Below are positions 5,071 to 56,298 of a stretch of 56,299 nucleotides of DNA, in pieces. Every line of letters starts with the position of its first letter. Within the stretch, counting starts at the first letter, position 1. Location: positions 1-56,299 of the forward strand of contig JAJDAV010000113.1 in assembly GCA_029261695.1 (NCBI GenBank), written 5' to 3'. The stretch comes from Nitrospinaceae bacterium (GTDB lineage Bacteria > Nitrospinota > Nitrospinia > Nitrospinales > VA-1). The notes beneath the pieces are model-generated. The model was not told where the DNA came from and searched no databases. It was given only the letters and a program-made list of their open reading frames with translations. Position numbers and translations under genes: made by a program.

Positions 5071-5136
5071 TAAAATGTCCTAGGTTTCTTATACCTAGCG
5101 GATATTTTATCTGATTTCTTGATATAAACGGGCTGA

Positions 5137-14255: not shown

Positions 14256-14309
14256 TTATTTCGGAATACCATAATAATTCGGGAAACATGTATAAATGGA
14301 GGTTTGGCC

Positions 14310-15269
14310 ATGCTTAAAGTTGATCTTTCCTTTGGTTCTAATTTTGCGTATCAAAACGCTTTCGTTGAAATGCACGACCGTTCGCACGCGCTCTCACTTA
14401 CGCTCAAGGACGGGAAAAATACCTGCACTTCTGACGAGTTTCCTGTTGGAGTCTTTCACGCCTTCGAAGGAAAACGCCTACTCGCTCAGTTGAAGTTTCA
14501 ATACGACTATGATGAAAAGCAGAATATCGTCACCGTTTGCGGAACGGATTTCGAATCCTCAGATGCCATGTGTCTTAAGACCGTTCCGGAAGGAACCTCG
14601 GAATACTGCAACCAGCGAACCAGCTCGGGTGGGTTTGCGGCCGACGATCTCATGCACAACCCGCATTGGAATTACCGCACACCTCTCATGCCAGGACTGG
14701 AAGACGTTTTAAAGAAAATGGCAAGAGCCGCCAACGAATCTTTGATCGCCGCTCTAAAAAAAGTCCCAGGGTTAACAGTAAAGGTGCGCACGCACCCACC
14801 GGAAATTGCGCCCGAAGACTATAATAAGTTGCTCACGGTTTATCGCGACAAAAAATTTCATGGCTTATACGAACCGGGAACTGAGTATGGTCCCACGGAC
14901 GATTTGTTTACAATCGAATCCGTATGGGGCGGTACCGTCCAATTTAATTTTCAAGAAAAGTTTGCCAACGTAATAGGCAGTACCAATGACCCGAAAATTG
15001 CTGGGTTGACGTGGATCCAATTGTGGGCAAAACAGTACGGTTTCTATCCGACCGTATGCACCTCATACCAATTCAATGGATTCCCATGTGGAAACAGTCT
15101 TGTCGGTGGACATGTGGTGACAGGTACTGTGGCAACCAAAGTTCCAGCAGGGTCCAATTCCGTTTATATATTTCCAATATGCGTACAGCACAACAATGAT
15201 GACAAAGTTTATATGGAAGCGCTCAAATATCTAAATGGAATCTGGCTGAAAAACTACATGGGGACGTAG
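14310..15269 (+). CDS. hypothetical protein; C-terminal Cys/His pattern suggests a possible HNH/His-Me-finger-like domain
   Basis: The track ORF starts at TTG 14304. I prefer ATG 14310, which sits 7 nt after GGAGG. There is no signal peptide. The C-terminus reads C-x9-C...GGHV...x20...IFPICVQHNN. I recognise no family for the N-terminal 240 aa. Confidence 0.6.
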   Translation: MLKVDLSFGSNFAYQNAFVEMHDRSHALSLTLKDGKNTCTSDEFPVGVFHAFEGKRLLAQLKFQYDYDEKQNIVTVCGTDFESSDAMCLKTVPEGTSEYCNQRTSSGGFAADDLMHNPHWNYRTPLMPGLEDVLKKMARAANESLIAALKKVPGLTVKVRTHPPEIAPEDYNKLLTVYRDKKFHGLYEPGTEYGPTDDLFTIESVWGGTVQFNFQEKFANVIGSTNDPKIAGLTWIQLWAKQYGFYPTVCTSYQFNGFPCGNSLVGGHVVTGTVATKVPAGSNSVYIFPICVQHNNDDKVYMEALKYLNGIWLKNYMGT

Positions 15270-19510: not shown

Positions 19511-21322
19511 TTAGGAAGCCTCTTTGGGCAGCGAGTTCAGCTTGCCCCCTTGGTATAAATCGAGAAGTTTTCGTATTTCACCGGCCTCTTTCTGGTTTGG
19601 GTCCAGAGCCAGAGACCTGGAGAAATAGAGCAAGCTTTCCTTCAGATTCTTAAGATGATAAAAATGCAATATTCCTAAATTTTTAAAAACATGAGGGAAT
19701 CTAGATTCAATCTCAATGCATTTTTTAAAATAGGCATCTGCAAGTTTCCACTTTTTCTGTGCTAAATATATTTCACCCAATTTGGCATACGTTTCCGGAA
19801 TTTTGGGATCGAGCTGCAATGCTGTTTGAAAACGAACAATGGCATCTTCGACTCTGTCATCTTTTAAATACAGCTCACCCAAATTATAATGAGTAACAAA
19901 TATTCCATCTCCTTTCGCAAGGGATTCTTCATAGAATCGGACGGCATCTTTATTATTCCCCTCAATACTATGCGCTCTTGCAAGATTAATAAGAGGTCGA
20001 ACTTTATCTGGCGATTTTTCATAAGTGTCTTGCCATAAGGATAACTCGGTCTTCCAAATTTGATTTCTCTCAATACTTAAAATCCCCAGCAAAAGAGTAA
20101 ATTCGCATAAAATTAAAATTCCCAAAACAGATTTATCAATAATTTTAAAATCGGAAATACTTTTCACACATTGGAATACGCCCAAGACCAGAACAAAAAC
20201 AACACCGGGCAAGGCCAGATAAACTCGGTGCTCAGCAGCAAGGTCATGCAAGGTGATAATAGAAGAGGAGGGAGACAGAACAATAAAATACCAAGCTAAA
20301 AAGAAAAGATAAAAACGCCATGCCTCCTGCTTCCAAAAAATATAAAACATCAGAGCAATAGAAGCTATCCCTGCAATAAAACTAACGGAAAAGAGTTGAG
20401 TCACAACTTCAATATCGGGATCGATATTTAAGTTTACGGGAAACAGTATTTTCTTGAGATAGTAAAACACAACCACCGCGGGTTGACTGAGAATGTAGCT
20501 TGCCCTGCCAACCATTTCATCGGGATTAGAGGGTCCAATCAGGAAAGTTTCGTCCGATAACAGCTTGTAAAAAAGTAGGCCAAGGAAGATTGACACACTT
20601 GCAATGATCAACCATTTCCATTTTAAAAGATTTTTAATTATGGGAGCATCTAAGGGACAAACAGCTATGTAATATAAAAATATAATAAGAGGAAAGGTTG
20701 CCAGTGTTTGCTTAACGCTGAACCCAGCCACTACCAGGAAAACAATAGCTATAGGCAGAACATATCTTTTAAGCGGTTGCCGCTTCGTGTTCGAATCCAG
20801 ACAAACTTGGAATAACAAGAATCCCAAAAGATAGAAAGTTGAAGCAAAAATTTCTGATCGACTGATAATGTAAACAACAGATTCTGTTTGGATTGGATGA
20901 ACAAGAAAGATTACTGCCACAAAAAATGAAATGGCGACATTATTTCCATCCGCGCGAACTTGGTTTTTAAAATTTATCAAAGCCTTTTGAGAAACACAAA
21001 AAATCAGAATTGCGTTAAGAATATGCAAAGAAAGATTAAAAACATGATAGCCAAAGGGACGCAGCCCATCAAGATAGGCATTAAATGCCATAGAAATAGA
21101 AAGCAGGCCTCTTGAAAAAAAATCTGAAACCCAAAACTCTAGATTAAGTATGGATTCTGGATTCTTTAGGTTTAGGTTATTTTGAATATAGGGAACGCTA
21201 TCGAATTGAAAAGTATTGTGTAAATGGTTTCCATATATGAGGACGCCGATTATGACAAGAGCGAAACAACAATATATTCTGGATAACCATGTTGAAGAAT
21301 TATCAAAAACCTTTGAATTCAT
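19511..21322 (-). CDS. GT-C-fold membrane glycosyltransferase-like protein with C-terminal TPR repeats (TMTC/DUF1736-like), paralog 1
   Basis: 603 aa. About 420 aa form a polytopic N-domain with first-loop FQFDSVPYIQNN and the conserved HDLAAEHRVYLALPG. The C-terminus carries TPRs (AIVRFQTALQLDPKIPETYAKLGEIY...). Confidence 0.8.
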   Translation of the reverse strand: MNSKVFDNSSTWLSRIYCCFALVIIGVLIYGNHLHNTFQFDSVPYIQNNLNLKNPESILNLEFWVSDFFSRGLLSISMAFNAYLDGLRPFGYHVFNLSLHILNAILIFCVSQKALINFKNQVRADGNNVAISFFVAVIFLVHPIQTESVVYIISRSEIFASTFYLLGFLLFQVCLDSNTKRQPLKRYVLPIAIVFLVVAGFSVKQTLATFPLIIFLYYIAVCPLDAPIIKNLLKWKWLIIASVSIFLGLLFYKLLSDETFLIGPSNPDEMVGRASYILSQPAVVVFYYLKKILFPVNLNIDPDIEVVTQLFSVSFIAGIASIALMFYIFWKQEAWRFYLFFLAWYFIVLSPSSSIITLHDLAAEHRVYLALPGVVFVLVLGVFQCVKSISDFKIIDKSVLGILILCEFTLLLGILSIERNQIWKTELSLWQDTYEKSPDKVRPLINLARAHSIEGNNKDAVRFYEESLAKGDGIFVTHYNLGELYLKDDRVEDAIVRFQTALQLDPKIPETYAKLGEIYLAQKKWKLADAYFKKCIEIESRFPHVFKNLGILHFYHLKNLKESLLYFSRSLALDPNQKEAGEIRKLLDLYQGGKLNSLPKEAS

Positions 21323-21330
21323 AAATACTT

Positions 21331-23259
21331 TTATTTTATTTGCGCTAAGGAGAATTTTAACAACTCCCGGGCATTAGCATTTTGGGGTTGCAGCTTGACA
21401 AGGTTTTCCAAATGAGGAATAGCATTTTCATACTCTCCACTTTTTAAAAAAATAGCCGCAAGGTTATTATGAATAGTTGGAATGTCGGATTTTATTTCCA
21501 GAACTTTTTGAAACTCAATTTTTGCTCTTTCCAGCGCTCCCAAATTCCAAAATATCGTCCCCATATTATTATGAGCCTTGTAATGTTTTGGGTCTATTTG
21601 AAGAGTTTTTCGGAAATGTTTTAGGGCAGAATCAAACTGTTTTAGATTCTTGTAAGAATTTGCAAGGTCGAAATGATAATCGGCCATGAAGGCATTCATA
21701 CTGATAGCTTTTTTAAAATAGGGTATGGCCTCTTGAAATTGGTTTAAATTATTTCTAGCTAATCCTGCATAATAAAAAGTGTCCGATTTTTTTGTCCCAA
21801 GTGAAATTCCAAAATCAAATTTTTCGATGGCCTTTTCCCAGTTCTTTTGCCGACCCGCAATATGACCTAAATTAACATGGGAATCGATTTGTAATGGCTT
21901 TATCGCCAAAGCCGCCTCAAGAGCAGTTTTGGCTTTTTCAAGTTGGCCAGCCCCCATATAAGCGGCCGCCAGATTATTATGAACCAAAGCCTTGCGAGGA
22001 GATTTTTCTGCAGTGTCTTCCCAAATTGATATTTCCGAACGAAAATCGAGAGATCGATTTAGAGTTAGGGTTGATGTCAGTAGAATAAATATTATAAATA
22101 TTGTTCGTGTTATTCTTTGACGATCCCTTAAATTTATAAATACACATCCCAAAAACAAACTGAATCCTAACCCCGGCAAATAGGTCCGATGCTCAGTAGC
22201 CAATTGCTTAAGAGGAATAAAACTGGATGTGGGAAGGAGGGTTATGAAAAACCATAAGGCACCCAATTTTATGAGATAGGATTTTTGCCTATAAATAACA
22301 ATTCCTGCAAGAAAAAGAATGATCAGAGAAACAAACCAATCCCAATGAAACCAAGTCATATAAATAACTATATCTGGCTCAAAATTTAAACTGAAGGGCA
22401 CAACCAGTTTGAGCAAGTAATAACCGACAATGACTTTGATTTGGCTTAGCAGGTAAAGCATTCGATGTGTATCTTCTGATGTCGGGTCGGCCTTTAGTGA
22501 AAACAGATTGCCCTGCTGAAAATATCGATACATCAGAAAAGCGAACAATAAAAATAAAATCCCTGCAATTTTTGGTAATAAGGTTTTCTGCTTTTCTTTT
22601 GGCGTTGCCAGCCAGAGATAGACACTGGCTAGCAATGGAAAAGAAGCAACAATTTCCTTAGTGGCAATTCCTAAAAATAAAACCACTAAAAGCCCAAATA
22701 CAAGGAATGGAGTTTTATATTTCGACTCATCCTTTCTCTCGGGTTTTACAATTTGCACAAAGATAAAGAAAGCCAGCAGATAAAAAAATGTAGCCAAAAG
22801 TGATGAGCGGCTGGATATATAAGTTACTGTTTGGATGGTTAATGGATTCACTAAATGAATCATCGCGCAAATGATGGGCAGTCTATTATTCCAGTTTCGA
22901 TTTGCTTTTGGCTCTATGCGCAAAATTTCTGCAACAAGAAAAAACCAAAGGATGGAGTTGAGTATGTGGATTAGCACATTTGCTAGATGATAACCAAAAA
23001 CTTCCAATCCACCTATATCCTGATTGATGGCAAAGGAAAGCAGAAGTATAGATCGATTAAAAATATTTTGAATGCCCACCTTTTCCTGAAATTTACTCAA
23101 GTCCTTTATGTGAGGATTTCCAACTATTGCATGGGTGTCATCATAAAGAAATGGAGATTGAAGCGTTCCAAAAAACACCAGCAACCCCATAAAGGAGAGA
23201 AAGCAGACTGTCTTAATCTGATTGGCAAAAATATATTTATTTTGTAAAGGCTGATTCAT
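21331..23259 (-). CDS. GT-C-fold membrane glycosyltransferase-like protein with C-terminal TPR repeats (TMTC/DUF1736-like), paralog 2
   Basis: 642 aa with first-loop FLYDDTHAIVGNPHI, KQLATEHRTYLPGLGF, and at least 6 C-terminal TPRs. Confidence 0.8.
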   Translation of the reverse strand: MNQPLQNKYIFANQIKTVCFLSFMGLLVFFGTLQSPFLYDDTHAIVGNPHIKDLSKFQEKVGIQNIFNRSILLLSFAINQDIGGLEVFGYHLANVLIHILNSILWFFLVAEILRIEPKANRNWNNRLPIICAMIHLVNPLTIQTVTYISSRSSLLATFFYLLAFFIFVQIVKPERKDESKYKTPFLVFGLLVVLFLGIATKEIVASFPLLASVYLWLATPKEKQKTLLPKIAGILFLLFAFLMYRYFQQGNLFSLKADPTSEDTHRMLYLLSQIKVIVGYYLLKLVVPFSLNFEPDIVIYMTWFHWDWFVSLIILFLAGIVIYRQKSYLIKLGALWFFITLLPTSSFIPLKQLATEHRTYLPGLGFSLFLGCVFINLRDRQRITRTIFIIFILLTSTLTLNRSLDFRSEISIWEDTAEKSPRKALVHNNLAAAYMGAGQLEKAKTALEAALAIKPLQIDSHVNLGHIAGRQKNWEKAIEKFDFGISLGTKKSDTFYYAGLARNNLNQFQEAIPYFKKAISMNAFMADYHFDLANSYKNLKQFDSALKHFRKTLQIDPKHYKAHNNMGTIFWNLGALERAKIEFQKVLEIKSDIPTIHNNLAAIFLKSGEYENAIPHLENLVKLQPQNANARELLKFSLAQIK

Positions 23260-23270
23260 ATAAATTTATT

Positions 23271-25547
23271 TTAATTCGAATCCAAATTCATTATTTTTTC
23301 CAATATCATTACTTTCAATCTTTCGTCCTTATTTAGTTTTAAGGACTGGTCATATCTTTCTCTGGCTTTTCCAATATTCCCTTGCGCTGCAAATGTGTCC
23401 CCGAGCAAAATCAGAGTATTTATGTCTTTTGGATACATTCTCCAAGACTTTTCAAAAAACAACTGTGCATTGGCCCAATCTTTTAAGTTTAAATAATTAA
23501 AACCAACCTGGGTAAGCACGGAAGGATTTGGACCTGACACCGCTATATAATTTTCAAATTTGTCAATGGATTCCTGCCAACGCATTTGTTTTTGTTTTAC
23601 TAATGCAAGGTTAAATAAGGCTGGTTTGAATCTAGTATTTAAGTCGAGACATTTTAAGAAAAACTTTTCTGCCTTATCCAGTTTACCCTGCATCATAAAA
23701 GCCGTTCCCAGATTAAATTGTGCCGGGAGCAAAGAAGGGTCCAGTTGTATAGCCAGCTTCCATTCATTAATAGCTTGCGAAATCCTTCCTGTCTTGCCAT
23801 AGACTTCGCCCAAATTTAAATGTGCCAACGGAAGAGGTTTTCCGTCATTTTTGGAATTCTCGCCGTCTATTGCTTGGCGATAAAGTTTTTCAGCCTTTTC
23901 AAAATTTCCTTTTTTGTTATAGACAGAGCCCAACCCGATTTTTGCCGAGGAATGTTCCGGTCGAAGAGAAAGCGTTTTAAGATATTCACTTTCCGCGAGA
24001 TCTATTTTACCTTGATCCAAATAAATACTGGCGAGGTTATAGTGAGGTTCAACAAGCTCAGCGGCTATTCGGAGATTTTGGTTTTCGGAGCTAAGATTAT
24101 CTGGATTATTCTTTCTTTTAAGAAAGTCATCCACATTTTTCAGGTTAAACTTTGCCTCAATAAATTTGGGTATATTTTCAATACTTTTTTCAAAATGGTA
24201 ACCCGCTCGGTCCAAGTCCCCATTTTCGAAATAAGCTTTCCCAAGATTGTTATGCGCCCGAGATGAAGATGGATTTTTTCTCGCCACGTCTTCCCACAAA
24301 CTTATTTCATCGACCCAGGCATTATTCCTTGTAATGGTTGACAAACTAAAAGTAATTACCATAAAAGCTATAAAACTCATTCGCTGGAAAGAAGGGAGTT
24401 GGGTAATCACCCAACCAACCACCATGCAAAGCCCCAATGTCAAAGGAAGATAGGTGCGATGCTCAACCGCCAAATCATTCAAAGGAAGAAAACTGGAAGT
24501 AGGAGCCAGTGTTATAAAAAACCATGCAGTTCCAACCAGCACCCAAGCGTTTCGAGATTTGATGGCAGCTGCCCCCAAACCAAAAATAATTAAAGCCGCA
24601 ATTAAAATGAAAGGATCTTCGTTAATTGAATTGAAGGGCGTGCCACTATCTACACTTAAATTAAAAGGAAATATGAAAAGCTTTAAATAGTAGAAAACAA
24701 TTATCTTTATTTGAATAAAAAGATAAGGTAATTGACCGTATAACTCCATCCCCTGATCTTTTGCGTTGTATATCCAGGATTTCCCCAATAAGAAGAAGGC
24801 TGAAATTGCAACCAAAGTAAGCAGCAAATAGGCCCAGTTTTTTTTCCACAATACTTCCATACTATTTCTTGAATAAATAAAAATTGAATACCAGAAACCC
24901 ATCAACAGCGGTAAGGTGGCGGAAATCAGTTTGGAAGCAAGGCTTAGATACATTGTCAACGCAATTACAGGAATTAAAGTCAGGCGGTTTTTTAATAAGC
25001 CCTTGTCAGGACAAAATAAATTTAGAAAAAGGTACAAAGAAAATAAATAGAAAAATGTTGCAAGGACAGATGATCTAGATGAAATGTAGGATACGGAATC
25101 TGTATTTAAAGGGTGCAGTGAAAATATCAGGGCGGTTATGAATGGAAATATCCAAATGTTAGCTGAATCTTTTACTCTAAAATAACTATCGTCCGCGTTT
25201 TTTGAATTTCTTATAAACGAAGAGGTTTTTAAAACAGAAAGAAAAATTAAAAGAGTGACTCCAATATGGAGCAAGAGGTTGAACAAATGAAATCCAAATT
25301 CTTTGTTTTTCCCCAGGGAGTTGTTCAGTGCGTAGGTCCAAAGCAGAACCGGTCTATTTTCAAAAGAAGATAGCTTTACAAAACGATTGAAAGAATCCAG
25401 ATTTTGAATCCAATGATTACTGATCAATGGAACATCATCGAACTGGAAAGAGCCTTGAAGCGAATTGAAATATATCCCGGTGCTGGATATTACCAATAAC
25501 AAAATGCAAGCAAGCTGTTTTTGTATTGCTTTTGGAATCAATGTCAT
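23271..25547 (-). CDS. GT-C-fold membrane glycosyltransferase-like protein with extended C-terminal TPR array (TMTC/DUF1736-like), paralog 3
   Basis: 758 aa with first-loop FQFDDVPLISNHW, NDLAVEHRTYLPLTLG, and a TPR region of about 340 aa. Confidence 0.8.
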   Translation of the reverse strand: MTLIPKAIQKQLACILLLVISSTGIYFNSLQGSFQFDDVPLISNHWIQNLDSFNRFVKLSSFENRPVLLWTYALNNSLGKNKEFGFHLFNLLLHIGVTLLIFLSVLKTSSFIRNSKNADDSYFRVKDSANIWIFPFITALIFSLHPLNTDSVSYISSRSSVLATFFYLFSLYLFLNLFCPDKGLLKNRLTLIPVIALTMYLSLASKLISATLPLLMGFWYSIFIYSRNSMEVLWKKNWAYLLLTLVAISAFFLLGKSWIYNAKDQGMELYGQLPYLFIQIKIIVFYYLKLFIFPFNLSVDSGTPFNSINEDPFILIAALIIFGLGAAAIKSRNAWVLVGTAWFFITLAPTSSFLPLNDLAVEHRTYLPLTLGLCMVVGWVITQLPSFQRMSFIAFMVITFSLSTITRNNAWVDEISLWEDVARKNPSSSRAHNNLGKAYFENGDLDRAGYHFEKSIENIPKFIEAKFNLKNVDDFLKRKNNPDNLSSENQNLRIAAELVEPHYNLASIYLDQGKIDLAESEYLKTLSLRPEHSSAKIGLGSVYNKKGNFEKAEKLYRQAIDGENSKNDGKPLPLAHLNLGEVYGKTGRISQAINEWKLAIQLDPSLLPAQFNLGTAFMMQGKLDKAEKFFLKCLDLNTRFKPALFNLALVKQKQMRWQESIDKFENYIAVSGPNPSVLTQVGFNYLNLKDWANAQLFFEKSWRMYPKDINTLILLGDTFAAQGNIGKARERYDQSLKLNKDERLKVMILEKIMNLDSN

Positions 25548-25819: not shown

Positions 25820-27310
25820 ATGAAATTAATTGGCAAGCAAACAAATATTTTAGCGCTGCGCAAAATATCTAATTTATTCCAGACCACTTCACTAGAGGTC
25901 GATGAGCTCTTGGCTATGGTCATGGATACTGCAAAAGAAATTGTGGGCGTAAAAAATGGTTCTCTGTTATTGGTGCAAGACGAAAAAACTTTCAAGCTTC
26001 AATTCTATCAGGCTTCAGGCAAAAATATGGGGCAGTTGAAGGAAATTGATTTGCCCCCAGGAGTAGGGATATCTGGGTATGTTGCAAAAACCGGGGAATC
26101 CATTATCTGCAACGATGTTTCGAAAGATTCGCGATGGTACCAAAAAGTCAGTGAGAAGGTAAAAATTCCTGTTCAATCTATGGCGAGCTTTCCACTTATT
26201 CTCGAAAAAAAGGTCATTGGGGTCGTACAGTTTTTAGACAAGATCGACGAGGGTACTTTCTCCAAAGAAGATGCGGTAATTTTAGGACAGTTTGCCAATT
26301 TGATGGCAAAATTTTTCCAGGTCTCAAGAAATAGAAAACTACTTGGAGAAGAATTTGGTCGACTAAAAGAACAGTATTTACAGCGTTATGCCATTGTTGG
26401 TGAAAGCGCAGCCATTAGAAAATGCATAAGTATTGCCGAAAAAGTTGCAGACTCTAAAGCTGCAGTTTTGTTAACTGGTGAAAGCGGGACGGGCAAAGAA
26501 TTATTCGCCCACCTGATCCATGATCGAGGCGAAAGGCAGACCAAGCCTTTTGTATCTGTAAGCTGCGGTGCACTGCCAGCATCCATACTCGAACGCGAAT
26601 TATTTGGTCATGAAAAAGGTGCTTTTACTGGCGCCGACTCACAAAAGATTGGGCTTTTTGAAGCTGCCGATACCGGAACATTGTTTCTTGATGAGATAGG
26701 TGAATTACCCATGGATATGCAAGTAAAGCTACTCCGGGTAATTCAAGAAGAATCTTTTATCCGTTTGGGTGGCACTAAAACCATTGAAGTTGATGTCAGG
26801 CTGGTCACCGCAACCAATCGTGACTTAGAAAAGGAAGTAAGAGAAGGAAATTTCAGGCAAGATCTTTTTTATAGGATTAATGTAATAAAAATTACTCTTC
26901 CTCCTCTAAGAGAAAAAATGGAAGATTTACCGGATCTGGTTTCCTTTTTTATGAAAAAACACACTCCCGAAAACCAGCCGGTAAAAAAGACATCCAAAAG
27001 CCTGATCCCCCATCTAATGAGTTATTCCTGGCCCGGAAACATCAGGGAATTGGAAAACTCCGTAGAGCGCGCCATTGTTTTAAGTGATGACGCAGAGCTT
27101 ACTCCAGAGGCCTTTCCCTTTGAAACTTCGCATTTACCGATTGAATTAAATGTAGGGTCCACCTTAAAAGAGGCAGGAGATTCTTTTCGAAAAACCTTCA
27201 TTACCAATACTCTAAAATCTACCTCAGGCAATCGCACAAAAGCAGCTAAAATCCTTGACGTTCAACGCTCCTACCTTTCTCGCCTGATAAAAGAACTGGA
27301 AATCGATTAA
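25820..27310 (+). CDS. sigma-54-dependent transcriptional activator (GAF sensor - AAA+ - Fis-type HTH; no receiver domain)
   Basis: 496 aa. N-terminal GAF-like region; Walker A GESGTGKE; sigma-54 contact loop GAFTGA; Walker [11 protein letters not shown]-terminal [27 protein letters not shown]. Confidence 0.9.
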
Positions 27311-35589: not shown

Positions 35590-36342
35590 TTAAGGAGAAA
35601 TTTCATCCAACAAATCCTTTCCCTCTTCCCTTAGAGAAAGAAATTTTTCATCTAGCGTATTATCTGTAAGTTGCATGAGTTTGTGAAGAGATTCTCGCGC
35701 TTCTTTGAAATTATTTTTTCCAATTAGGCCTTTTGCCAGCCCCAGGTGGTTTTCTGGGAAGTTTGGGGCTAACCGAACGGCTTCTTTTAGATGGAATATT
35801 GATTTATCCATATCTCCCCCCAAAAAGAAGGGCAATTCCATATATAAATTCCCAAGGGCGCGGTGCGGGCCGGCACGGTTGACAGTCGGATCCAGGCTCA
35901 CCGCTTTCTCCATGTCATCCCTAAAAGGATCGATGATTCCTAAACTGGCCCAAACTCCTTTGCTTTCCCCTAGTTTTCCTCGGCAAAGGCCTCGATAAAA
36001 ATAGCTGTTTGAGGATTCCGGGTGCAGTTCAATGGCACGAGAGCTAAAATGGATACATTGTTCATAATGATGAATACTTGTTTCCTCCGATATTTTTGCA
36101 AGAGCGTAATGGGTTCTGGCCTGGCGCCATTGCCACTCATAAAGGCCAGGGTTTTCTTCCAAAACTTTTTCAATTTTAGCAGCGACGCTTTTAAACTCCA
36201 ACTCCGACTCACTAATTTTATGAAGTTCATCAATTTCATTCAGTGTCGAGCTTTGGGCAAAAGCTACTGAAATATTAAGAAAGAATATCCATAAAAAAAG
36301 GATAGAAATGGGAATCAATAATTTATTGAAAATGGTGTTCAT
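35590..36342 (-). CDS. periplasmic TPR-like protein (TatT-like family, tentative)
   Basis: 250 aa with the signal peptide LLIPISILFLWIFFLNISVAFAQS, TPR-like helices, and a LPFFLGGDMDKSIFHLKEAVRLAP block reminiscent of TatT-type proteins. Confidence 0.55.
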   Translation of the reverse strand: MNTIFNKLLIPISILFLWIFFLNISVAFAQSSTLNEIDELHKISESELEFKSVAAKIEKVLEENPGLYEWQWRQARTHYALAKISEETSIHHYEQCIHFSSRAIELHPESSNSYFYRGLCRGKLGESKGVWASLGIIDPFRDDMEKAVSLDPTVNRAGPHRALGNLYMELPFFLGGDMDKSIFHLKEAVRLAPNFPENHLGLAKGLIGKNNFKEARESLHKLMQLTDNTLDEKFLSLREEGKDLLDEISP

Positions 36343-36462: not shown

Positions 36463-37077
36463 ATGAAAAATCCAAAAATAATTGCTTTTGCGTCACTTCT
36501 GCTGTGCTTTTTTCTAACAGGCCTGTCTTGGGCAGATTCAGAGAAAAGCAAACCGCAAGATGCTGTCAAAATTCTTTTAAACGAGATCAAGCAAATAGTT
36601 GAAGGGGATAACTTGTCGGACGCTGACATCTCAGCAAACAAAAAACATTCCGACCAAGCCTTAAGCAATTTAAAAGTGCAAGAGATCAGCGAGAAAGCTC
36701 TGGGGAAATACTGGGCCAAACATAGTGTGGAACAGCAAAATCAATTTCAGAATTTATTGGCTGATTTATTTGTGCACGTTGCTTTCCCCAGTTCGGCGAA
36801 GTTTTTTGCAAATTTGGATTTGGTGTATGGCAAAACAAAAAGTAAAAAGGATATGATGGTTGTGCCAATTACCGTTATCCATGAAAAAGAAGGCGAAGTA
36901 GACATAGATTTTAGAATGAAACCATCAGAAGAAAGGTGGTTGGTAGTTGATGTTATTCTCGATGGGGTCAGCATGCGCAATAATTTGCGAAGCCAATTTT
37001 ACAAAATTTTAAAGAAAAAAGATTTTAATCATTTGGTTCATAAGATGGAAAAAAAATTAAAAGAAGCTAAAAGCTGA
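36463..37077 (+). CDS. mlaC: MlaC/Ttg2D-family periplasmic phospholipid-binding protein
   Basis: 204 aa with a signal peptide, the ...ISEKALGKYWAKHSVEQQNQFQNLLADLF... block, and the characteristic C-terminal WLVVDVILDGVSMRNNLRSQF. Confidence 0.8.
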   Translation: MKNPKIIAFASLLLCFFLTGLSWADSEKSKPQDAVKILLNEIKQIVEGDNLSDADISANKKHSDQALSNLKVQEISEKALGKYWAKHSVEQQNQFQNLLADLFVHVAFPSSAKFFANLDLVYGKTKSKKDMMVVPITVIHEKEGEVDIDFRMKPSEERWLVVDVILDGVSMRNNLRSQFYKILKKKDFNHLVHKMEKKLKEAKS

Positions 37078-49572: not shown

Positions 49573-50082
49573 CTAGGGCTTGTAACCTATCGTACCAATG
49601 AGTTTGGCGTTTTTGAAGCTCGTGTCGCGAGTTGTTGCGGATGTCAAATTAGCTTTGGTAAGATCCGCTCCGTGAAGAGATGCAGAGGTCAGGTTTGCTC
49701 TACTGAGGTCGCAACCCGTTAAGTTCGCGAAAGTAAGACTGGCCTTTATGCATTTGGCTCCGGCCAAATTTGCTTTCGTTAAATTGGCTCGACTTAAGGT
49801 GGTATTCTCTAGAGTAGCCCGGCTTAAATCGGCTTCTCTAAGGTTAGCGGTGGTTAAATCTGCTTCTGTCATATTTGAATTTTTAAAATTACATTTAGAC
49901 AGAAAAGTCCTGACGAATTTAGTTTTTATCAATAGGGTATTGCTGAAGTTTGCCGAAGCCAGAGTTAATCCACTAAAGTCCAAACCCGAAAGATCCAAGC
50001 CGGAAAAATCCATTTGGTTGGAATGCTCAATACTTTTGGTAATGAGTAACCTTCTAACTTCTTCTGTTGTTATGTTAGCCAT
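49573..50082 (-). CDS. pentapeptide-repeat protein
   Basis: 169 aa, almost entirely A(D/N)LxX repeats (ANLREADLSRATLENTTLSRANLTKANLAGAKC...). Confidence 0.85.
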   Translation of the reverse strand: MANITTEEVRRLLITKSIEHSNQMDFSGLDLSGLDFSGLTLASANFSNTLLIKTKFVRTFLSKCNFKNSNMTEADLTTANLREADLSRATLENTTLSRANLTKANLAGAKCIKASLTFANLTGCDLSRANLTSASLHGADLTKANLTSATTRDTSFKNAKLIGTIGYKP

Positions 50083-50161: not shown

Positions 50162-51682
50162 TTATTGAATAGCATTATTTGTGACCGTTTCTAACTCCCT
50201 CTTTTTATTGCGAAAATCCCAAAGCAACAATAAATAAAAAGGTAGATATTCCACCCAGGGTGTCCATTGACTCCACGTTTGAATCTCCTGATAGTCAAAA
50301 TAAAAATCTAGGTAATAAAGCCCAACCAAACCGGTAAGCAAAATCCATGACCGATTTGGGAACAAACATAAAAATGGTACTACCCAGCAAAGGTACCAAG
50401 GATTTTGTATGGGGCTAAGCAAAAATACCAGAGCCATCAGAACGAAGAAATGTTTTATGAACTTTTGAGGTTCGTTAATCAATGAAGTGTTTTTCAACAG
50501 AATCCAAATTAGAACCGCCATCAATATACAAACCACGGTTAGTTTGCTAAGAAAAATGGGTAATGGGTTAGACAAAAAAGACACACTATTTAAATCTCCC
50601 GGTAAGCTTTTGAAGATAAAAACCAGACAGGCAAAAATACTGTCATTACTTTGCCAATAGAGAGAATAAGCTTTTAACCCGTCAAACATTTGCAAGCCAA
50701 TCCCCATAAAAGGGAGATACCCAAGAATTATTATCCCAATAAAGAGCAACGAGTTTAAGATGGGCGCCCCCCACGGATTCCCTTCATTTTCACGAGACTT
50801 CTCAAGACAAGATTGGAAATAAAGGGGAAATAATATTGCTGGATAAAGTTTTCCCAAAAAACCCAACGCAAGAAAAATTGTTGCCAGACTATGGCGGTGG
50901 CGGATCAGAAAATAAATAGAGCCACATAAAAATGAAATTCCAATAATATCCAGATGAGTGGAGTTGAGAGTTTCTTTGATTATGAGTGGGCACCAGAAAT
51001 AAATCACACTCCAATTTTTATTTAATCCCAACTTGCTCAGAATTCCAACAATGAAAAACAAAGTTAAAACATCGAAGAACAGAAAAGCCAAACGCATGGC
51101 AAGAATACTGTCCGCTTGAATAAGGTGAACCGCTGTGAACACAAACTGAGCCATGGGAGGGTATATGGTCGGCACTGTTGGATGGTTTACCCTCTCGAGA
51201 TATTTTAGGGATTTAGGAGTCTCCCATTTCAACGCCGATAGTTTTTCCAGTTCTCGCTCATTTGTTTCGGTATAAATCTCATAATAAGTTTCGGGATTTT
51301 GGATTCGCAACTCTTTAAAGTCATGAACTTCTGAGGGAGAGTATTTGAAAGGATTGATGCCGTTGGAAAAAACTTTCCCATCCCATAGATAGCGATAAAC
51401 ATCGTCTTCCTGGATCTGCTGCGCTGGCAAGATAGCCAGCCTGAACAGCAAGCCGAAAACAATAAGGGCCCAAAAGGTAAATCGATCTTCCGGTTTCTTT
51501 AAAACAAAAGCGCAAGCGGCAAAGAAAACCAAGGAGAGCGAAAAATAAATTACCAGATAGGTGAGAATTGGTCGATCGGCATAGCCTTCACCCCAATTGA
51601 ACTCTTTAGAAATTTTAGTAAGGAAGAAATAAAGGAGTAGACTAACAATTCCCAGGAAAATGACCTGGAGACGTGGGCGCAT
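50162..51682 (-). CDS. polytopic GT-C-fold membrane protein (DUF2029/GT87-like glycosyltransferase, tentative)
   Basis: 506 aa with at least 11 predicted TM segments. The first-loop acidic motif QIQEDDVYRYLWDGKVFSNGINPFKY is typical of GT-C enzymes. Confidence 0.65.
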   Translation of the reverse strand: MRPRLQVIFLGIVSLLLYFFLTKISKEFNWGEGYADRPILTYLVIYFSLSLVFFAACAFVLKKPEDRFTFWALIVFGLLFRLAILPAQQIQEDDVYRYLWDGKVFSNGINPFKYSPSEVHDFKELRIQNPETYYEIYTETNERELEKLSALKWETPKSLKYLERVNHPTVPTIYPPMAQFVFTAVHLIQADSILAMRLAFLFFDVLTLFFIVGILSKLGLNKNWSVIYFWCPLIIKETLNSTHLDIIGISFLCGSIYFLIRHRHSLATIFLALGFLGKLYPAILFPLYFQSCLEKSRENEGNPWGAPILNSLLFIGIIILGYLPFMGIGLQMFDGLKAYSLYWQSNDSIFACLVFIFKSLPGDLNSVSFLSNPLPIFLSKLTVVCILMAVLIWILLKNTSLINEPQKFIKHFFVLMALVFLLSPIQNPWYLCWVVPFLCLFPNRSWILLTGLVGLYYLDFYFDYQEIQTWSQWTPWVEYLPFYLLLLWDFRNKKRELETVTNNAIQ

Positions 51683-51688
51683 CCTGAG

Positions 51689-52594
51689 TTAATGCGTTTG
51701 TGCGAAGGAGCTTTGCCCTTCCAGCTTTTTCAGTTTTTCAATTTCCATGTCGGAAAGGGTTTTGTAAATCTCTAGAACACTGCGGTGGGTGTAGGGGTCA
51801 TCATTCTTAATTGCAAGGGCAGACCAATATCGGGTTAGCGCCTCCTGATACATTTTTTTCTTTTTGTATATATCTCCAAGTCGGACGAACAAATCAAACC
51901 GGTCTGGCTCAAGCACAGAGACCCGCTCCATACTATTCGCAGCTTCCAGAAGCTTTCCTGATCTTTCGAACTCGGTACCCAATGCCTCAAGGTATGTGGG
52001 GTTTTCAGGTTCGATATCCACTGCTTTTAAAATATGCTCGATTCCATGATCGTAATTTTGTTTTTTAAGGAGAAGCCTGCCTAATCGATAATGGCTGGCA
52101 GAATGCTTATTATCAATATTTATAGCTTTTAAATAGGTTTGTTCGGCTTCTGCAAGTTGACCTTCTAATTCCTGAAACTCTCCCAACACGCTTAGAGGGT
52201 GCGCCGAGTCTGGATTTTTATTTGCCGCCGTATTTAGCTGAGAAAAGGCGTCTTCTTTTTTTCCCTGTAAATAATGGATGGATGCCAAATTGATTCGGCT
52301 AAAAGTATCTTCTGTGTGCTTTAACACATCTTGATAGAGTTCTGCCGCACGATCATGCTTGCCCTGATCCTGATAAACCACACCCAGATTGTATAACGCG
52401 AAAGTGTCTTTCGGATTTTTTCTTAAAGCCAGCTTGTACTCTTCAATGGCTTTGGCATAATCCTTATTGTCGTAATGCTCAACCCCCCGATTAAAATGGC
52501 TGTCGATGGGAGCGGGCGTATTGGTGCAGCCAACAAAGAAAATCACCTGGCAGTACAAAAAAAGTTTTACAGGAAATTTTAGAAAATTCAGCAT
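51689..52594 (-). CDS. TPR-repeat lipoprotein
   Basis: 301 aa with the lipobox IFFVGC and at least 6 TPRs (YAKAIEEYKLALRKNPKDTFALYNLGVVY...). Confidence 0.8.
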   Translation of the reverse strand: MLNFLKFPVKLFLYCQVIFFVGCTNTPAPIDSHFNRGVEHYDNKDYAKAIEEYKLALRKNPKDTFALYNLGVVYQDQGKHDRAAELYQDVLKHTEDTFSRINLASIHYLQGKKEDAFSQLNTAANKNPDSAHPLSVLGEFQELEGQLAEAEQTYLKAINIDNKHSASHYRLGRLLLKKQNYDHGIEHILKAVDIEPENPTYLEALGTEFERSGKLLEAANSMERVSVLEPDRFDLFVRLGDIYKKKKMYQEALTRYWSALAIKNDDPYTHRSVLEIYKTLSDMEIEKLKKLEGQSSFAQTH

Positions 52595-52596
52595 AG

Positions 52597-53718
52597 TTAT
52601 CTGGCTGACACCTTATCGAGCCGTTTCATACGAGTATCCGGCTTTCCTGAAGTGGAAACTTCATCCGATGCCACGGGAACATCATCGGACTTGCGTACCA
52701 GTTTCCAAGGGTTCCGTTTCAAATCTTCGGTTAACGATTTCAAGTTTCGAGAAGTTTCGTTCATGTTTTTGACGAGTTCGAGTAAGCTCCGTCGATTCTC
52801 AACCATAATAGAGTTTCCCTGATCCAGAGTTTGCGCAACGCTGGTTGCAGTGCGGTCTATATCTAGAGTTATTTCTTGAGCGTTCGTTTCCATGCTATTG
52901 ATCAAACTGGTTACACCCGGTCGCGTATCAGCCATTAAAATTTCCATTTCGCGCGACATGTTATGTAGCTGGCTTATGATCTCTCTAATCTCGGTATCTT
53001 TATCTGTTAACAGTTTATCGGCTTTTTCTGAAACAGAGGCCACGTGCTCGAAGGTCGAGCCTAGCTTGCCGCTATTTTTATCCAGAAAATTTGAAAGTTT
53101 TCCCGACACCTTTAAAGCATTATCCATATTTGCTTTAATTGCCGGTCGGTTTTCCATAACGACTGAATCCATATGCGAAACAGATAGCCGTACGCCTTCT
53201 AACGTATTTCGAACATCTGTTACCAGGTCTTCGGTAAGTTTGGTAAATCGTCGGATTTCCAAAATCACTTCTGTGGCCATGTCGCCAATTTTTGCAATCT
53301 CAAAAGAATCCTGACCAATCAATTTTTCATTTGCAGCCAATTCAGGTGAGCCTTGTGTTCCTGGTCGGATATCGATATAAAGGCCACCCATTAAACCGGC
53401 GGTTTTAATCATAGCGACTGAATTTTTCTTAATGATAATAGCGGGATTAATCTCTGCAATAACCGTTACCCTATCACTGCCCTTTTCATCTTTTGAGCCG
53501 AGCAATTCGATATCTTTTACAGACCCAATATCAAGACCTGCATAACGGACCGGAGCACCCACTTCCATTCCACCTGTAAAATTAAAAACAACTTTTAACA
53601 TTTTACGAGGTTTGAAATAGTCCTGAATATTTCCCATCATAAAAATCATGGCAACCAGCCCAATCATGCTGATGAAAATAAATAACCCGGCTTTAACTTC
53701 TGAGGAACGGTATTCCAT
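52597..53718 (-). CDS. mlaD: MlaD/MCE-domain protein with long C-terminal helical extension
   Basis: 373 aa with an N-terminal TM segment, the MCE block FTGGMEVGAPVRYAGLDIGSVKDIEL, and about 230 aa of helical C-terminus. Confidence 0.85.
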   Translation of the reverse strand: MEYRSSEVKAGLFIFISMIGLVAMIFMMGNIQDYFKPRKMLKVVFNFTGGMEVGAPVRYAGLDIGSVKDIELLGSKDEKGSDRVTVIAEINPAIIIKKNSVAMIKTAGLMGGLYIDIRPGTQGSPELAANEKLIGQDSFEIAKIGDMATEVILEIRRFTKLTEDLVTDVRNTLEGVRLSVSHMDSVVMENRPAIKANMDNALKVSGKLSNFLDKNSGKLGSTFEHVASVSEKADKLLTDKDTEIREIISQLHNMSREMEILMADTRPGVTSLINSMETNAQEITLDIDRTATSVAQTLDQGNSIMVENRRSLLELVKNMNETSRNLKSLTEDLKRNPWKLVRKSDDVPVASDEVSTSGKPDTRMKRLDKVSAR

Positions 53719-53720
53719 AA

Positions 53721-54527
53721 TTATATATGACTCATGTTTTTGAGTTCGTCTCCATAATTGGTCAGGCTTTTGCTAAAGGGAATCGGTCCATCAGGGCTTC
53801 CCTGTATGAACTGTTGCACTCTTGGGTCGTCACTATTCCTGATCTCTTCTGGAGAACCCGAAGCAACGATCTTTCCCTTGAACAGCATAATAATTTTATC
53901 AGAAATTCTCATAGCGCTGGGAATTTCATGGGTGACCACAACCGATGTGATTCCCATTTTACGGCTGAGGTCGATGATTAACTTGTCAATAACGCCTATG
54001 GAAATGGGGTCAAGCCCTGCTGAAGGCTCGTCATAAAAAACAATTTTTGGGTCCAGCGCAATGGCCCGCGCCAAAGCAATGCGCTTAATCATGCCTCCTG
54101 ACAGTTGCGCTGGTTTGAGATGCTCCGCACCTCTTAACCCCACCATCTCCAATTTCATTTTCACCATTATTTGAATGGTGCTTTCGTTTAGCTCCGTATG
54201 TTCCCGCATAGGAAGGGCGACATTATCTTCAACCGTTAACGAATTGAACAAAGCACCGCTCTGAAACATGATGCCAAATTTTTTTCTTACGCCATTCGCC
54301 GCTTCACCTTGCAACAGACTTACTTCTTCACCATCGATCCAAATTTCTCCTGAGTCCGGGGTGTAAGCACCGATGAGGTGTTTCAGCACCGTACTTTTTC
54401 CGCTACCGCTTCCACCGATGATAGAAGTGATTTGACCTTTTTCCATCTCTGCATTGAAATCATCGAGCACGACCACCCGCTTATCGCCTTCACCAAAAGA
54501 TTTCCTGAGATGTTTGATTTCTATCAT
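53721..54527 (-). CDS. mlaF: ABC transporter ATP-binding protein MlaF
   Basis: 268 aa with Walker A GGSGSGKST, signature LSGGMIKRIALARA and Walker B IVFYDEPSAGLDP. Confidence 0.9.
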   Translation of the reverse strand: MIEIKHLRKSFGEGDKRVVVLDDFNAEMEKGQITSIIGGSGSGKSTVLKHLIGAYTPDSGEIWIDGEEVSLLQGEAANGVRKKFGIMFQSGALFNSLTVEDNVALPMREHTELNESTIQIMVKMKLEMVGLRGAEHLKPAQLSGGMIKRIALARAIALDPKIVFYDEPSAGLDPISIGVIDKLIIDLSRKMGITSVVVTHEIPSAMRISDKIIMLFKGKIVASGSPEEIRNSDDPRVQQFIQGSPDGPIPFSKSLTNYGDELKNMSHI

Positions 54528-55345
54528 CAGAATACAAAGAAAAATAAAGATGTAAATACTAAATCTGCGATGATCACCAGGATCATGGAGACCACCACTG
54601 CGGTGCGTGTATTTTGTCCTACTTTTTCAGCTCCACCTTCAATGATGAATGCCATGTAGCTACCCACCATTACAATGATAACTGCAAACACAACGCTTTT
54701 TACTAACCCGGTTATAACGTCCTTCACTACCATTGCATCGAGGGAATTGTTGACATAAACCACCGGGTCGATACCCAGAGTGGTCGTGCCAATGAGGAAG
54801 CCCCCTAAAATCCCCATGAGGTCTGCCATAATAGTCAGGCAGGGCAACATGATCAATAGCGCCAGAAACCGGGGAGTGATCAAAAACTTGACTGGATTCA
54901 GAGCCATGGTTTCCAAAGCCAGAACTTCATCGGAAACTTTCATGGTTCCCATCTCGGCGGTGAACGCTGCTCCCACGCGACCCGCCATAACAAGAGCGGT
55001 CATTAAAGGTCCCAGTTCTCTCAGTATGGCAACTCCCACCAGCGCACCCACAAATTCCAAAGCACCCAGTCGGCTCAATTGATGCGCAGACTGAAAAGCG
55101 AGGATGACACCGATCAAAAACGAAACCAAAAATACAATGGTGGTGGACTTAACGCCGACCTCTTCCATTTGTGTCCATACGGGACGCCATTTATTCGGCT
55201 TGCCTTTTAGCGGTTCTATGAATGTGCAATATAGGGTGGCTCGGGTCAGATAATACAGGCCACTTATTTCCCTGAAGAAATCTGTAGAGGAATCTACAAG
55301 ATTGAAACCTCTTCTACCTATGAATCCAAAAAATGACCTGACCAT
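54527..55345 (-). CDS. mlaE: ABC transporter permease MlaE
   Basis: The block LRELGPLMTALVMAGRVGAAFTAEMGTMKVSDEVLALETMALNP matches the MlaE signature. I place the start at ATG 55345 (AGGAA 5 nt upstream). The track ORF starts at TTG 55393. The stop overlaps the mlaF start by 1 nt. Confidence 0.88.
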   Translation of the reverse strand: MVRSFFGFIGRRGFNLVDSSTDFFREISGLYYLTRATLYCTFIEPLKGKPNKWRPVWTQMEEVGVKSTTIVFLVSFLIGVILAFQSAHQLSRLGALEFVGALVGVAILRELGPLMTALVMAGRVGAAFTAEMGTMKVSDEVLALETMALNPVKFLITPRFLALLIMLPCLTIMADLMGILGGFLIGTTTLGIDPVVYVNNSLDAMVVKDVITGLVKSVVFAVIIVMVGSYMAFIIEGGAEKVGQNTRTAVVVSMILVIIADLVFTSLFFFVF

Positions 55346-55459
55346 AATTATTCCTGAGGCGTAACTATGCGCAGGCCAGATAAAAGCACACAAACTAGTA
55401 ACCAGAAGCGCAACGGTTATCGTCTGCTCAATTACGTTTTGACCTACTGCGTGTGGAGG

Positions 55460-55798
55460 CTACTCCACTAAGGCTTGCTCTTTTGTATCGAAAACTTCAA
55501 AAACGGTTAACAGGCGCGCAATCTCAAAGACATCTTTAACTCCAGGAGTTAGAGAGACCAGTCGAAATTTATTCTGACTGCTGTGACTCCATTGCAGCCC
55601 TTCGACCAGTGTGGCAATGCCTGAACTATCGATATAGGAGACCCCTGATAAATCCACAATAATGGCTTTATTATTTTCCTTAAACAAGGGAGCTAGAATA
55701 TCGCGGACTTTTGTCGACGAACTCATATCGATGTCGCCATTGACTGATACGGTGACTGTGTTTTCCGCGAGATGCTCTAACTTCAACTCAATGCTCAT
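55460..55798 (-). CDS. STAS-domain protein (anti-sigma-factor antagonist SpoIIAA/RsbV-like; sits in the MlaB position)
   Basis: 112 aa. VSYIDSSGIATLVEG retains the DSSG phospho-acceptor motif. Its start overlaps the upstream kinase stop (ATGA). Confidence 0.85.
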   Translation of the reverse strand: MSIELKLEHLAENTVTVSVNGDIDMSSSTKVRDILAPLFKENNKAIIVDLSGVSYIDSSGIATLVEGLQWSHSSQNKFRLVSLTPGVKDVFEIARLLTVFEVFDTKEQALVE

Positions 55799-56238
55799 TC
55801 TTTATTCTTCTCCTGAACCGACGTTAACTCGCTTTTTAATTTTTTAACCATTGTCAACAAAGTGCCTTTTGCCCTTTCGGTGCAATAGCTCACTTCATCC
55901 ATGATCTCGTTAATGAAATGTGTACCCAATCCACCAGGTTTTATCTGGTCGAGACAGCGCGGCTTGATTTGGCTGCTATCACATTGCTTGCCGTAATCTC
56001 TTATCTGGACTTTGAAGTCATCCTCATCGATGAAAAAGGTAGCTTCGATAGGTTCCTCACAAGGCCCACCGTAACCATGCTTTATGACGTTGGAACAGGC
56101 TTCGTCCACGCAAAGAATGAGACGTCTTGCTGTTTCGTCCGGAACTTCATGGTAGTCCAGAAGTTCCTGAAGAACTTTTCGAATCAACCCCAGATACTTT
56201 GGGTGACTTGGTATGGAAAGTTTAATAGGTTGCGACAT
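55795..56238 (-). CDS. RsbW/SpoIIAB-like anti-sigma-factor serine kinase (GHKL HATPase_c_2)
   Basis: 147 aa with N-box CVDEACSNVIKHGYG and G-box IKPGGLGTHFINEIMDEV. Confidence 0.82.
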   Translation of the reverse strand: MSQPIKLSIPSHPKYLGLIRKVLQELLDYHEVPDETARRLILCVDEACSNVIKHGYGGPCEEPIEATFFIDEDDFKVQIRDYGKQCDSSQIKPRCLDQIKPGGLGTHFINEIMDEVSYCTERAKGTLLTMVKKLKSELTSVQEKNKE

Positions 56239-56270: not shown

Positions 56271-56298
56271 AGTATACCTTGAAACCCCGTTATTTCAA
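56271..56298 (-). promoter_or_regulatory. candidate sigma-70 promoter for the kinase-STAS-mla operon (TTGAAA-N16-TATACT)
   Basis: The minus strand reads aTTGAAAtaacggggtttcaaggTATACT. The -10 ends 32 nt upstream of ATG 56238. Pattern match only, at the window edge. Confidence 0.3.

Follow-up and report, generated by a model that had tools for sequence, protein, structure and literature searches.

A kinase and STAS protein as the probable partner-switching control of an MCE/Mla-family lipid transporter operon in Nitrospinota

This study concerns a stretch of 56,299 nucleotides from a Nitrospinaceae bacterium (contig JAJDAV010000113.1 of assembly GCA_029261695.1; the whole stretch is referred to as the window), and within it a run of seven tightly spaced minus-strand genes followed by an eighth that encodes a pentapeptide-repeat protein, all read from the list of open reading frames (ORFs) and from the sequence of this Nitrospinota genome. 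On balance we favour the view that they form the operon of a trans-envelope lipid transporter of the ATP-binding cassette (ABC) type and the MCE/Mla family, whose STAS subunit is under a partner-switching module of its own. In the mechanism that we propose, the unphosphorylated STAS protein would take the role of MlaB, binding the ATPase MlaF through the face of its helix alpha-2 and enabling assembly and ATP hydrolysis. An RsbW-type kinase would phosphorylate Ser58 at the start of this helix, releasing the STAS protein and turning the transporter off, and a PP2C phosphatase would strip the phosphate upon a small-molecule signal sensed by its GAF domain. The kinase-STAS-Mla arrangement is well supported by comparative genomics, and we found no published description of it; full-text literature searches returned no paper joining partner switching with Mla transporters. 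At the biochemical level, we infer STAS phosphorylation, STAS-MlaF binding and the sign of the regulation.

The gene pair at the head of the run has the hallmarks of partner switching, namely a GHKL kinase with N- and G-boxes and a single-domain STAS protein with a serine at the start of helix alpha-2. The first gene (positions 55795 to 56238, minus strand) encodes an RsbW/SpoIIAB-type GHKL serine kinase of 147 amino acids that matches PF13581 (HATPase_c_2) with 95 bits. Among the Pfam and NCBIfam models its best named matches are RsbW and SpoIIAB, and its closest solved relative is RsbW of B. subtilis (6M36, E 9e-12). Its stop codon overlaps the start of the second gene in the sequence ATGA. 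This second gene (55460 to 55798, minus strand; PF01740, 62 bits) encodes the STAS protein, of 112 amino acids, in which Ser58 of a DSSG motif is the predicted phospho-acceptor. The N-box, G-box and DSSG motifs named in the initial annotation of this DNA are all present (DEACSN, GGLGT and DSSG). The N-box DEAxxN and the G2 box PGGLGT are retained in at least 95% of 81 kinase orthologues, and all 82 kinase-linked STAS proteins have an unchanged DSSG, followed by a nearly invariant helix. A separate feature of the kinase is its set of cysteines: C43, C48, C86 and C119, two of which flank the N-box (LCVDEAC), do not vary across 21 Nitrospinota kinases. In other phyla C43 and C86 are below 80% and C48 is kept more widely, and the four may together make up a redox or metal site peculiar to the lineage.

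The STAS protein scores 78.5 bits against the anti-sigma-antagonist model TIGR00377, above the cut-off of 53, and its phmmer matches among PDB entries are TM1442 (8e-12), RsbV (4e-6), SpoIIAA (7e-6) and MlaB (0.035). When a profile of the 82 STAS orthologues was compared by hhalign with E. coli MlaB, whose sequence was verified against chain K of 6XBD, the two aligned with 94.6% probability and 31% identity over 71 columns, pointing to a homology between them that is real, though remote. In this comparison D57-S58 of the STAS protein falls on D51-T52 of MlaB, and Ser58 is also aligned with Ser58 of SpoIIAA. The designation of the DSSG serine as an acceptor site, made initially from the motif, is strengthened by the TIGR00377 match, by this alignment with SpoIIAA and by its presence in every orthologue. 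In E. coli, Thr52 of MlaB is central in the MlaF interface and the T52E substitution reduces binding; phosphorylation of MlaB was described as 'one particularly intriguing possibility' in that work, which leaves the matter unsettled and identifies no kinase (PMC7367683).

The next three genes encode the transporter itself. MlaE (54527 to 55345, minus strand) is an ABC permease of the MlaE family that matches PF02405 with 245 bits and TIGR00056, over its cut-off, with 239 bits; against the E. coli-specific model NF033619 it scores 178 bits, under the cut-off of 315. We take the ATG at 55345 as the true start, giving 272 amino acids, because its context ATGGTCAGRTCAT is conserved in relatives. 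MlaF (53721 to 54527, minus strand; 268 amino acids) is an ABC ATPase that reaches 278 bits against PRK11831, under the 441-bit equivalog cut-off, with a match covering 10-267 of 270. Its top PDB matches, at E ~1e-70, are the MlaF chains of MlaB-containing complexes (7CH8, 7D06, 6XBD) from P. aeruginosa, A. baumannii and E. coli, and the alignment continues through a C-terminal extension with the motif DPRxxQFxxGxPDGPxPF. This extension is typical of MlaB-binding MlaF proteins and contacts MlaB in E. coli. MlaD (52597 to 53718, minus strand; 373 amino acids; PF02470, 63 bits) is a long, presumably tunnel-type MCE protein with an N-terminal transmembrane helix, an MCE domain at residues 41-120 and a helical tail of ~250 residues with a weak match to Mce4_CUP1. 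It scores 68 bits against the E. coli MlaD equivalog model (cut-off 135), and across Nitrospinota its length is 369-375 residues.

The end of mlaE and the start of mlaF share base 54527, and the following gaps are 2 nt (mlaF/mlaD), 2 nt (mlaD to a TPR gene) and 6 nt (from the TPR gene to the gene of a 506-residue protein). The ORF list and the sequence bear out the coordinates, overlaps and small gaps first given for these seven minus-strand genes. The operon contains no mlaC. An orphan gene of the MlaC family lies ~13 kb from it at 36463-37077 on the plus strand (PF05494, 93 bits), adjoining a TPR gene at 35590-36342 on the minus strand, and this MlaC-type shuttle protein may still serve the Mla-type operon or another MCE system.

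Most of the weight of the argument lies on the persistence of this arrangement in other bacteria. The kinase alignment was scanned against one genome per GTDB species, which gave at least 584 relatives, and the best 80 were fetched; L numbers below label the fetched relative loci and contigs. ORFs were called in the fetched loci and searched with the window proteins. Among these best 80, 77 loci have 700 nt or more beyond STAS, and in about 72 of them mlaE is the next gene; mlaE and mlaF are both present in 60 of the 63 with DNA enough for both. The MCE gene follows too, with a Rhodospirillales copy that is too diverged for phmmer and was confirmed by Pfam in L062. The 77 loci represent nine phylum-level groups (Nitrospinota, Nitrospirota, Latescibacterota, Desulfarculaceae, Thermodesulfobacteriota, Entotheonellaceae, Acidobacteriota/Terriglobia, Planctomycetota and Rhodospirillales/Alphaproteobacteria), with kinase identity down to 38%, and the genes flanking the module differ from lineage to lineage. 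In a second, independent scan, of metagenome contigs, the arrangement was found in 32 of 35 loci of close kinases and in 11 of 20 loci of distant ones (33-44% identity). The initial annotation had proposed a synteny search as a check, and the linkage has stood up to it; chance adjacency is ruled out by the counts from the GTDB species and the close metagenome loci.

Nearer to the window, kinase homologues from organisms named Nitrospinae or Nitrospina range from 91% identity down to 58% in Candidatus Nitrohelix vancouverensis. Three annotated orthologue contexts (the 91% relative, the complete Nitrohelix genome and Nitrospinaceae NPINA01) share the order kinase-STAS-MlaE-MlaF-MlaD-TPR-GT-C-168 aa. 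On the 5′ side of the kinase, annotated relatives have either a divergent dciA gene across a gap of ~385 nt or unrelated genes. One contig labelled Emcibacteraceae (L029, JAJFIR010000028.1) has a kinase 97% identical to that of the window and is collinear with the window across 7.3 kb with 80% identity in DNA; the contig probably belongs to Nitrospinota and was assigned to the wrong metagenome-assembled genome during binning.

The comparison also supplied a phosphatase. In 16 Rhodospirillales-type loci a single polypeptide of 570-640 residues joins GAF, PP2C (SpoIIE) and HATPase_c_2 domains, with the kinase domain at its C-terminus, and because of this fusion we regard phosphatase and kinase as acting together. 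A hidden Markov model made from the fused PP2C domains led to a separate GAF-PP2C gene of ~430 amino acids directly 5′ of the kinase, on the same strand and frequently with a 4-nt overlap. It is present in Nitrospirota, Latescibacterota, Desulfarculaceae, Planctomycetota, Acidobacteriota (where the protein bears an additional FHA domain), Magnetospirillum and part of the Nitrospinota. Judged from gene order, the full conserved module is GAF-PP2C, kinase, STAS, MlaE, MlaF and MlaD. Its first gene is patchy in Nitrospinaceae, being intact in L008, L016, L018, L019, L029 and L093 and absent from loci of the dciA type. The initial annotation had reported neither a sigma factor gene nor a PP2C gene; this holds for the 56 kb, but the window stops just where many relatives carry the GAF-PP2C gene.

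The link between the STAS protein and the transporter is closest in relatives that have no kinase. In the Mpc system of Brucella a single polypeptide carries the STAS domain and the MlaE permease, and MpcE, F, D and A co-purify as a stable complex (PMC12436622). A tblastn search of plasmids with the concatenated STAS and MlaE sequences of one Rhodospirillales locus found single ORFs spanning both in Ruegeria and Azospirillum, annotated as MlaE-family permeases of 374-378 residues. Their operons consist of permease, ATPase, MlaD-family protein and PqiC-like lipoprotein, without kinase or phosphatase, and the same four-gene operon occurs on Legionella and Klebsiella plasmids (the fusion loci L087-L091 are Ruegeria, Azospirillum, Legionella, Marinibacterium and Klebsiella). 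The kinase-linked operons of Rhodospirillales, like the fusion operons, encode an MCE protein, here of 330 residues, and a PqiC-like lipoprotein. Because STAS is fused to MlaE in these kinase-less relatives, the STAS protein encoded 5′ of mlaE is best understood as part of the transporter. A STAS search of 1.84 billion representative proteins had no STAS-MlaE fusion among its top 150 matches, nearly all of which are stand-alone STAS proteins of ~110 residues.

The kinase-less fusions keep a serine or threonine at the acceptor position (DTGG, DTVG, DTAG, DSSG, DSSF). A division into DSSG for kinase-linked and DTGG for kinase-less proteins was considered and ruled out: four of six kinase-less sequences have threonine, but that of Legionella has DSSG and that of Marinibacterium DSSF. 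The motif alone cannot separate the two kinds, since both keep Ser/Thr. Mpc-type operons are common on large plasmids, those of enterobacteria included, and 319 plasmid records matched the MlaE part of the query.

The alternative that survives best is a conventional switch, in which the kinase would be the anti-sigma factor of a remote sigma factor, the STAS protein its antagonist, and the Mla genes neighbours or co-regulated cargo, for example of an envelope-stress regulon. Several observations weigh in its favour, or at least against a switch dedicated to the transporter. By its profile matches the STAS protein is of the RsbV/SpoIIAA type, passing the antagonist model and staying below the MlaB family model NF033618 (23 bits, cut-off 90), and the kinase is nearest to the sigma-regulating RsbW. 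Modules of PP2C, kinase and STAS sometimes occur without Mla genes (L036, L075 and in part L085, from Magnetospirillum sp. UT-4, which has mlaE and then hypothetical genes), and in some contigs the kinase/STAS pair outlasts the deletion of transporter genes. Nine of the 20 distant metagenome kinases stand in other contexts; these exceptions adjoin FHA, PPM and Hanks-kinase genes and probably represent other branches of the kinase family. The gap between STAS and mlaE, which is 33-325 nt in Nitrospinota and Nitrospirota only, leaves room for an internal promoter and permits independent transcription.

The phosphatase adds to these difficulties. The window reaches only 61 nt beyond the kinase on its 5′ side and contains no PP2C gene in its 56 kb. 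Remnants of a PP2C gene (its first and last few dozen codons only) lie 5′ of the kinase in L009 (1551-1832) and L020 (8401-8833), from which we conclude that the phosphatase gene has been lost repeatedly in Nitrospinaceae. A search for the exact window kinase protein, and one of metagenome contigs for an exact 40-nt DNA match, gave nothing, and relatives therefore serve as the guide to the upstream region. In DNA the window is closest to L092, with which it shares 93.5% identity across the kinase and STAS genes; L092 belongs to the dciA type and has no PP2C gene within 6 kb upstream of the kinase. The phosphatase of the window genome is therefore encoded elsewhere or lost. That no phosphatase is visible for this genome is the main weakness of our model as applied to it.

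We nonetheless consider the conventional switch unlikely. No sigma factor gene accompanies the module at any locus examined: the 56-kb window has no sigma factor, second STAS or RsbW-like gene, and in annotated relatives the 10 kb to each side of the kinase are free of sigma factor genes. A sigma gene directly upstream had been named at the outset as an observation that would count against a role in transport, and in its place relatives have the divergent dciA or the GAF-PP2C gene. A switch with a remote target would also leave unexplained why linkage to MlaEF is maintained across nine phylum-level groups despite changing flanks, with STAS and mlaE overlapping or nearly abutting, and why kinase-less homologues have STAS and MlaE in one polypeptide (PMC12436622). 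Finally, E. coli MlaB is a precedent for a STAS protein as a subunit of an ABC transporter.

The spacing of STAS and mlaE bears on the same question. In Alphaproteobacteria, Desulfarculaceae, Acidobacteriota, Planctomycetota and Latescibacterota the two genes range from an 11-nt overlap to a 37-nt spacing. In the window the gap is 66 nt from a TTG start of mlaE or 114 nt from the ATG start, and a consensus scan of the 114 nt found no terminator-like or promoter-like site in it, either of which the initial annotation had listed as a potential objection. The gap with its two candidate starts is as first described, but the statement that it holds no hairpin needs correction: a small hairpin, GTGGAG-TAGC-CTCCAC, lies at 55453 to 55468 on the minus strand, recognised by folding and in relatives, with the STAS stop codon within its loop. 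Its 6-bp stem lacks a U-tract and was not called as a terminator, and the fold of the whole gap is not unusual (z-score -1.8). A stem of at least 5 bp was found in 17 of 32 Nitrospinota loci, whereas control positions have one at a rate of 6.6%; its arms occur in six or more different sequences, with compensatory changes within the Nitrospina clade. These are counts of an ungapped script, and RNAalifold gave no consensus structure for the gap owing to indels.

A second alternative keeps the transporter as the target and inverts the wiring. The kinase would bind and inhibit MlaF or MlaE, and the unphosphorylated STAS protein would sequester the kinase and never join the transporter. This is the canonical logic of RsbW and SpoIIAB, and the Mla genes are linked to the kinase as tightly as to STAS. 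Set against this, it is STAS and not the kinase that is fused to MlaE or bound to MlaF in characterised relatives (PMC12436622; PMC7367683), the window MlaF retains the extension that contacts MlaB, and the Rhodospirillales kinase, tethered to GAF-PP2C in a protein of ~600 residues, is a better fit to a pure signalling enzyme. We judge inverted wiring to be improbable, a shade more so than a remote sigma factor. Weakest is direct control of operon transcription by the kinase and STAS proteins in the manner of CapK (HTH (helix-turn-helix) and STAS domains with a GHKL kinase) and CapS (a STAS-winged-HTH repressor), which control adjacent immune operons (PMC13373217): the position at the head of the operon resembles that of capK-capS (PMC13373217) and a conserved promoter-like block with a palindrome stands just 5′ of the kinase, but the kinase consists of a GHKL domain only and the STAS protein of a STAS domain only, and because neither has a DNA-binding domain we reject this as very improbable.

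The promoter-like block, TTGAAA-16 nt-TATACT (56271 to 56298, minus strand), lies ~33 nt 5′ of the kinase start and is the best sigma-70-like match of the region in the consensus scan, agreeing at 10 of 12 positions. It is kept in seven of ten Nitrospina-clade relatives, with or without an upstream PP2C gene, and the element at 56298-56271 is a candidate promoter. In L008, L012, L016, L018 and L029 a palindrome or hairpin stands beside the block, at a place that would be just past the end of the window; its arms vary by compensatory changes, as in CACTGGCG-GTA-CGCCAGTG and CCCAC-GCTA-GTGGG. This palindrome may serve as an operator, or it may terminate transcription of the gene before it.

The phospho-switchable STAS subunit of an Mla transporter, which the initial annotation had suggested, is thus the explanation that we retain, supported by synteny, by the GAF-PP2C gene, by the lack of a nearby sigma gene and by the STAS-MlaE fusions. 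A broader proposal may be attached to it, for which our confidence is clearly lower and which we offer as a working idea: the pair of GAF-PP2C and RsbW-type kinase may be an old and widespread gate of MCE/Mla transporters, of which MlaB and the fused STAS domains would be stripped-down descendants, and the GAF domain would place trans-envelope lipid flux under the influence of a metabolite or lipid that acts as a signal in the cytoplasm.

Compared with known switches, the proteins described here most resemble RsbU-RsbV-RsbW-SigB and SpoIIE-SpoIIAA-SpoIIAB-SigF of Bacillus, which share the GHKL kinase and the DSSG-type STAS protein, include a PP2C phosphatase as in the relatives of our locus, and provide the best matches. 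They differ in that here no sigma gene is linked, the partner genes are those of an ABC transporter and the sensor is a GAF domain. STAS phosphorylation with an output other than a sigma factor has its counterparts in HenR/All4160 of Anabaena, which acts on a polysaccharide enzyme, and in SypE/SypA of Vibrio; HsbR/HsbA of Pseudomonas is likewise a partner-switching module with non-sigma output. Kinase and PP2C domains are also united in a single protein in HsbR and SypE, as in the GAF-PP2C-kinase of Rhodospirillales. None of these three systems is tied to an MCE/Mla transporter, however, and their sensor is a receiver domain instead of GAF.

Among transporters, E. coli MlaFEDB (6XBD, 6XGY) has in common with our operon MlaE, a C-terminally extended MlaF, an MCE protein and a single small operon-encoded STAS protein whose helix alpha-2 starts with Ser or Thr (Thr52 in MlaB, Ser58 here). 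Unlike our operon it has no kinase or phosphatase gene, and mlaB is its last gene, whereas STAS here precedes mlaE. Its MlaD has 183 residues as against 373, the TPR, GT-C and pentapeptide genes are additions here, mlaC lies outside the operon here, and the STAS protein here is of RsbV type and under the cut-off of the MlaB model. The Mpc system of Brucella abortus (MpcEFDA) and its plasmid homologues share the MlaE/MlaF core, a STAS domain immediately 5′ of the MlaE domain and an elongated helical MCE protein that is presumed to span the envelope. They differ in that the permease carries STAS as a fusion and neither kinase nor phosphatase is present, where Nitrospinota have a separate STAS protein with a dedicated kinase, and in their lipoprotein, which is PqiC-like and not of the TPR type.

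Veillonella parvula MlaEFD is likewise a minimal core with an elongated MlaD and no MlaA or MlaC in its operon, and is proposed as the ancestral trans-envelope form (PMC10665443); it differs in having no STAS protein and in an MlaD that ends in a beta-barrel. The phylogenomic Mla survey in the same paper scores MlaB as absent in Nitrospina gracilis and in Nitrospirae entries, and mentions no kinase (PMC10665443). As that survey searched with the MlaB model only, our results suggest that such surveys under-count STAS subunits outside Proteobacteria.

How lipid traffic between the two bacterial membranes is regulated is largely unknown. The operons described here offer natural systems in which a transporter operon encodes a kinase, an acceptor and usually a GAF phosphatase, and in which the phosphorylation question raised for MlaB becomes testable. 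If our model is right, partner switching extends from transcription to the direct control of an ABC transporter; bacterial partner-switch control would have no known precedent in this class of transporters.

Downstream of mlaD, the operon continues with genes that are characteristic of Nitrospinota. The TPR gene (51689 to 52594, minus strand) encodes a lipoprotein of 301 residues that matches many TPR families and, by sequence reading, has a lipobox-like FVGC near its N-terminus. It is followed by the gene of a polytopic membrane protein of 506 residues (50162 to 51682, minus strand) and by the pentapeptide-repeat gene (49573 to 50082, minus strand; 169 residues; PF00805, 108 bits), after which the next gene is convergent. 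The TPR, 506-residue and pentapeptide genes are found 3′ of mlaD in most Nitrospinota loci with sufficient downstream DNA, where the pentapeptide gene is conserved 3′ of the GT-C gene, and a TPR gene also follows mlaD in L038, L060 and L083. The larger envelope machine that had been surmised from these genes would be specific to Nitrospinota. Even among near relatives the tail of the operon differs, since the similarity of L092 to the window (L092 9677-12441) stops at the end of mlaD, with no TPR or GT-C gene after it.

The 506-residue protein is probably a GT-C-fold, GT87-like glycosyltransferase. This label, already given to it in the initial annotation, holds through its orthologues but not for the window copy itself, which is below threshold and has no Pfam match of its own: three of 13 orthologues match GT87 (PF09594, best 4e-8) and one matches PIG-U, and precomputed matches of orthologues 51-81% identical to the protein include MptA_B (PF26314) and GT87. 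The motif QEDDVYRY after the third helix is invariant among the orthologues. A profile of the 13 orthologues had no PDB match by sequence, and a single-sequence AlphaFold2 model was too poor for use (predicted local distance difference test score 44, predicted template modelling score 0.26).

Five marine Nitrospinaceae contigs (L010/L098, L015, L096, L102 and L163), all with different breakpoints, are without some or all of the genes from mlaE through mlaF and mlaD to TPR, and have the GT-C and pentapeptide genes directly behind kinase and STAS. In L010 the STAS gene is truncated and the PP2C gene is in fragments. These contigs are either real population variants or assembly artefacts.

Elsewhere in the window, a 321-residue ORF at 14304-15269 on the plus strand has no Pfam match at E 1e-4. 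A cluster at 2780-6276 on the minus strand encodes a GT2 glycosyltransferase, a radical-SAM/SPASM protein and a GT4 glycosyltransferase, and is adjoined by a methyltransferase gene at 1964-2767. At 19511-25547 on the minus strand lie genes for three large TPR proteins in a row (603, 642 and 758 residues), and divergent from them lies the gene of a GAF-domain sigma-54 activator at 25820-27310 on the plus strand.

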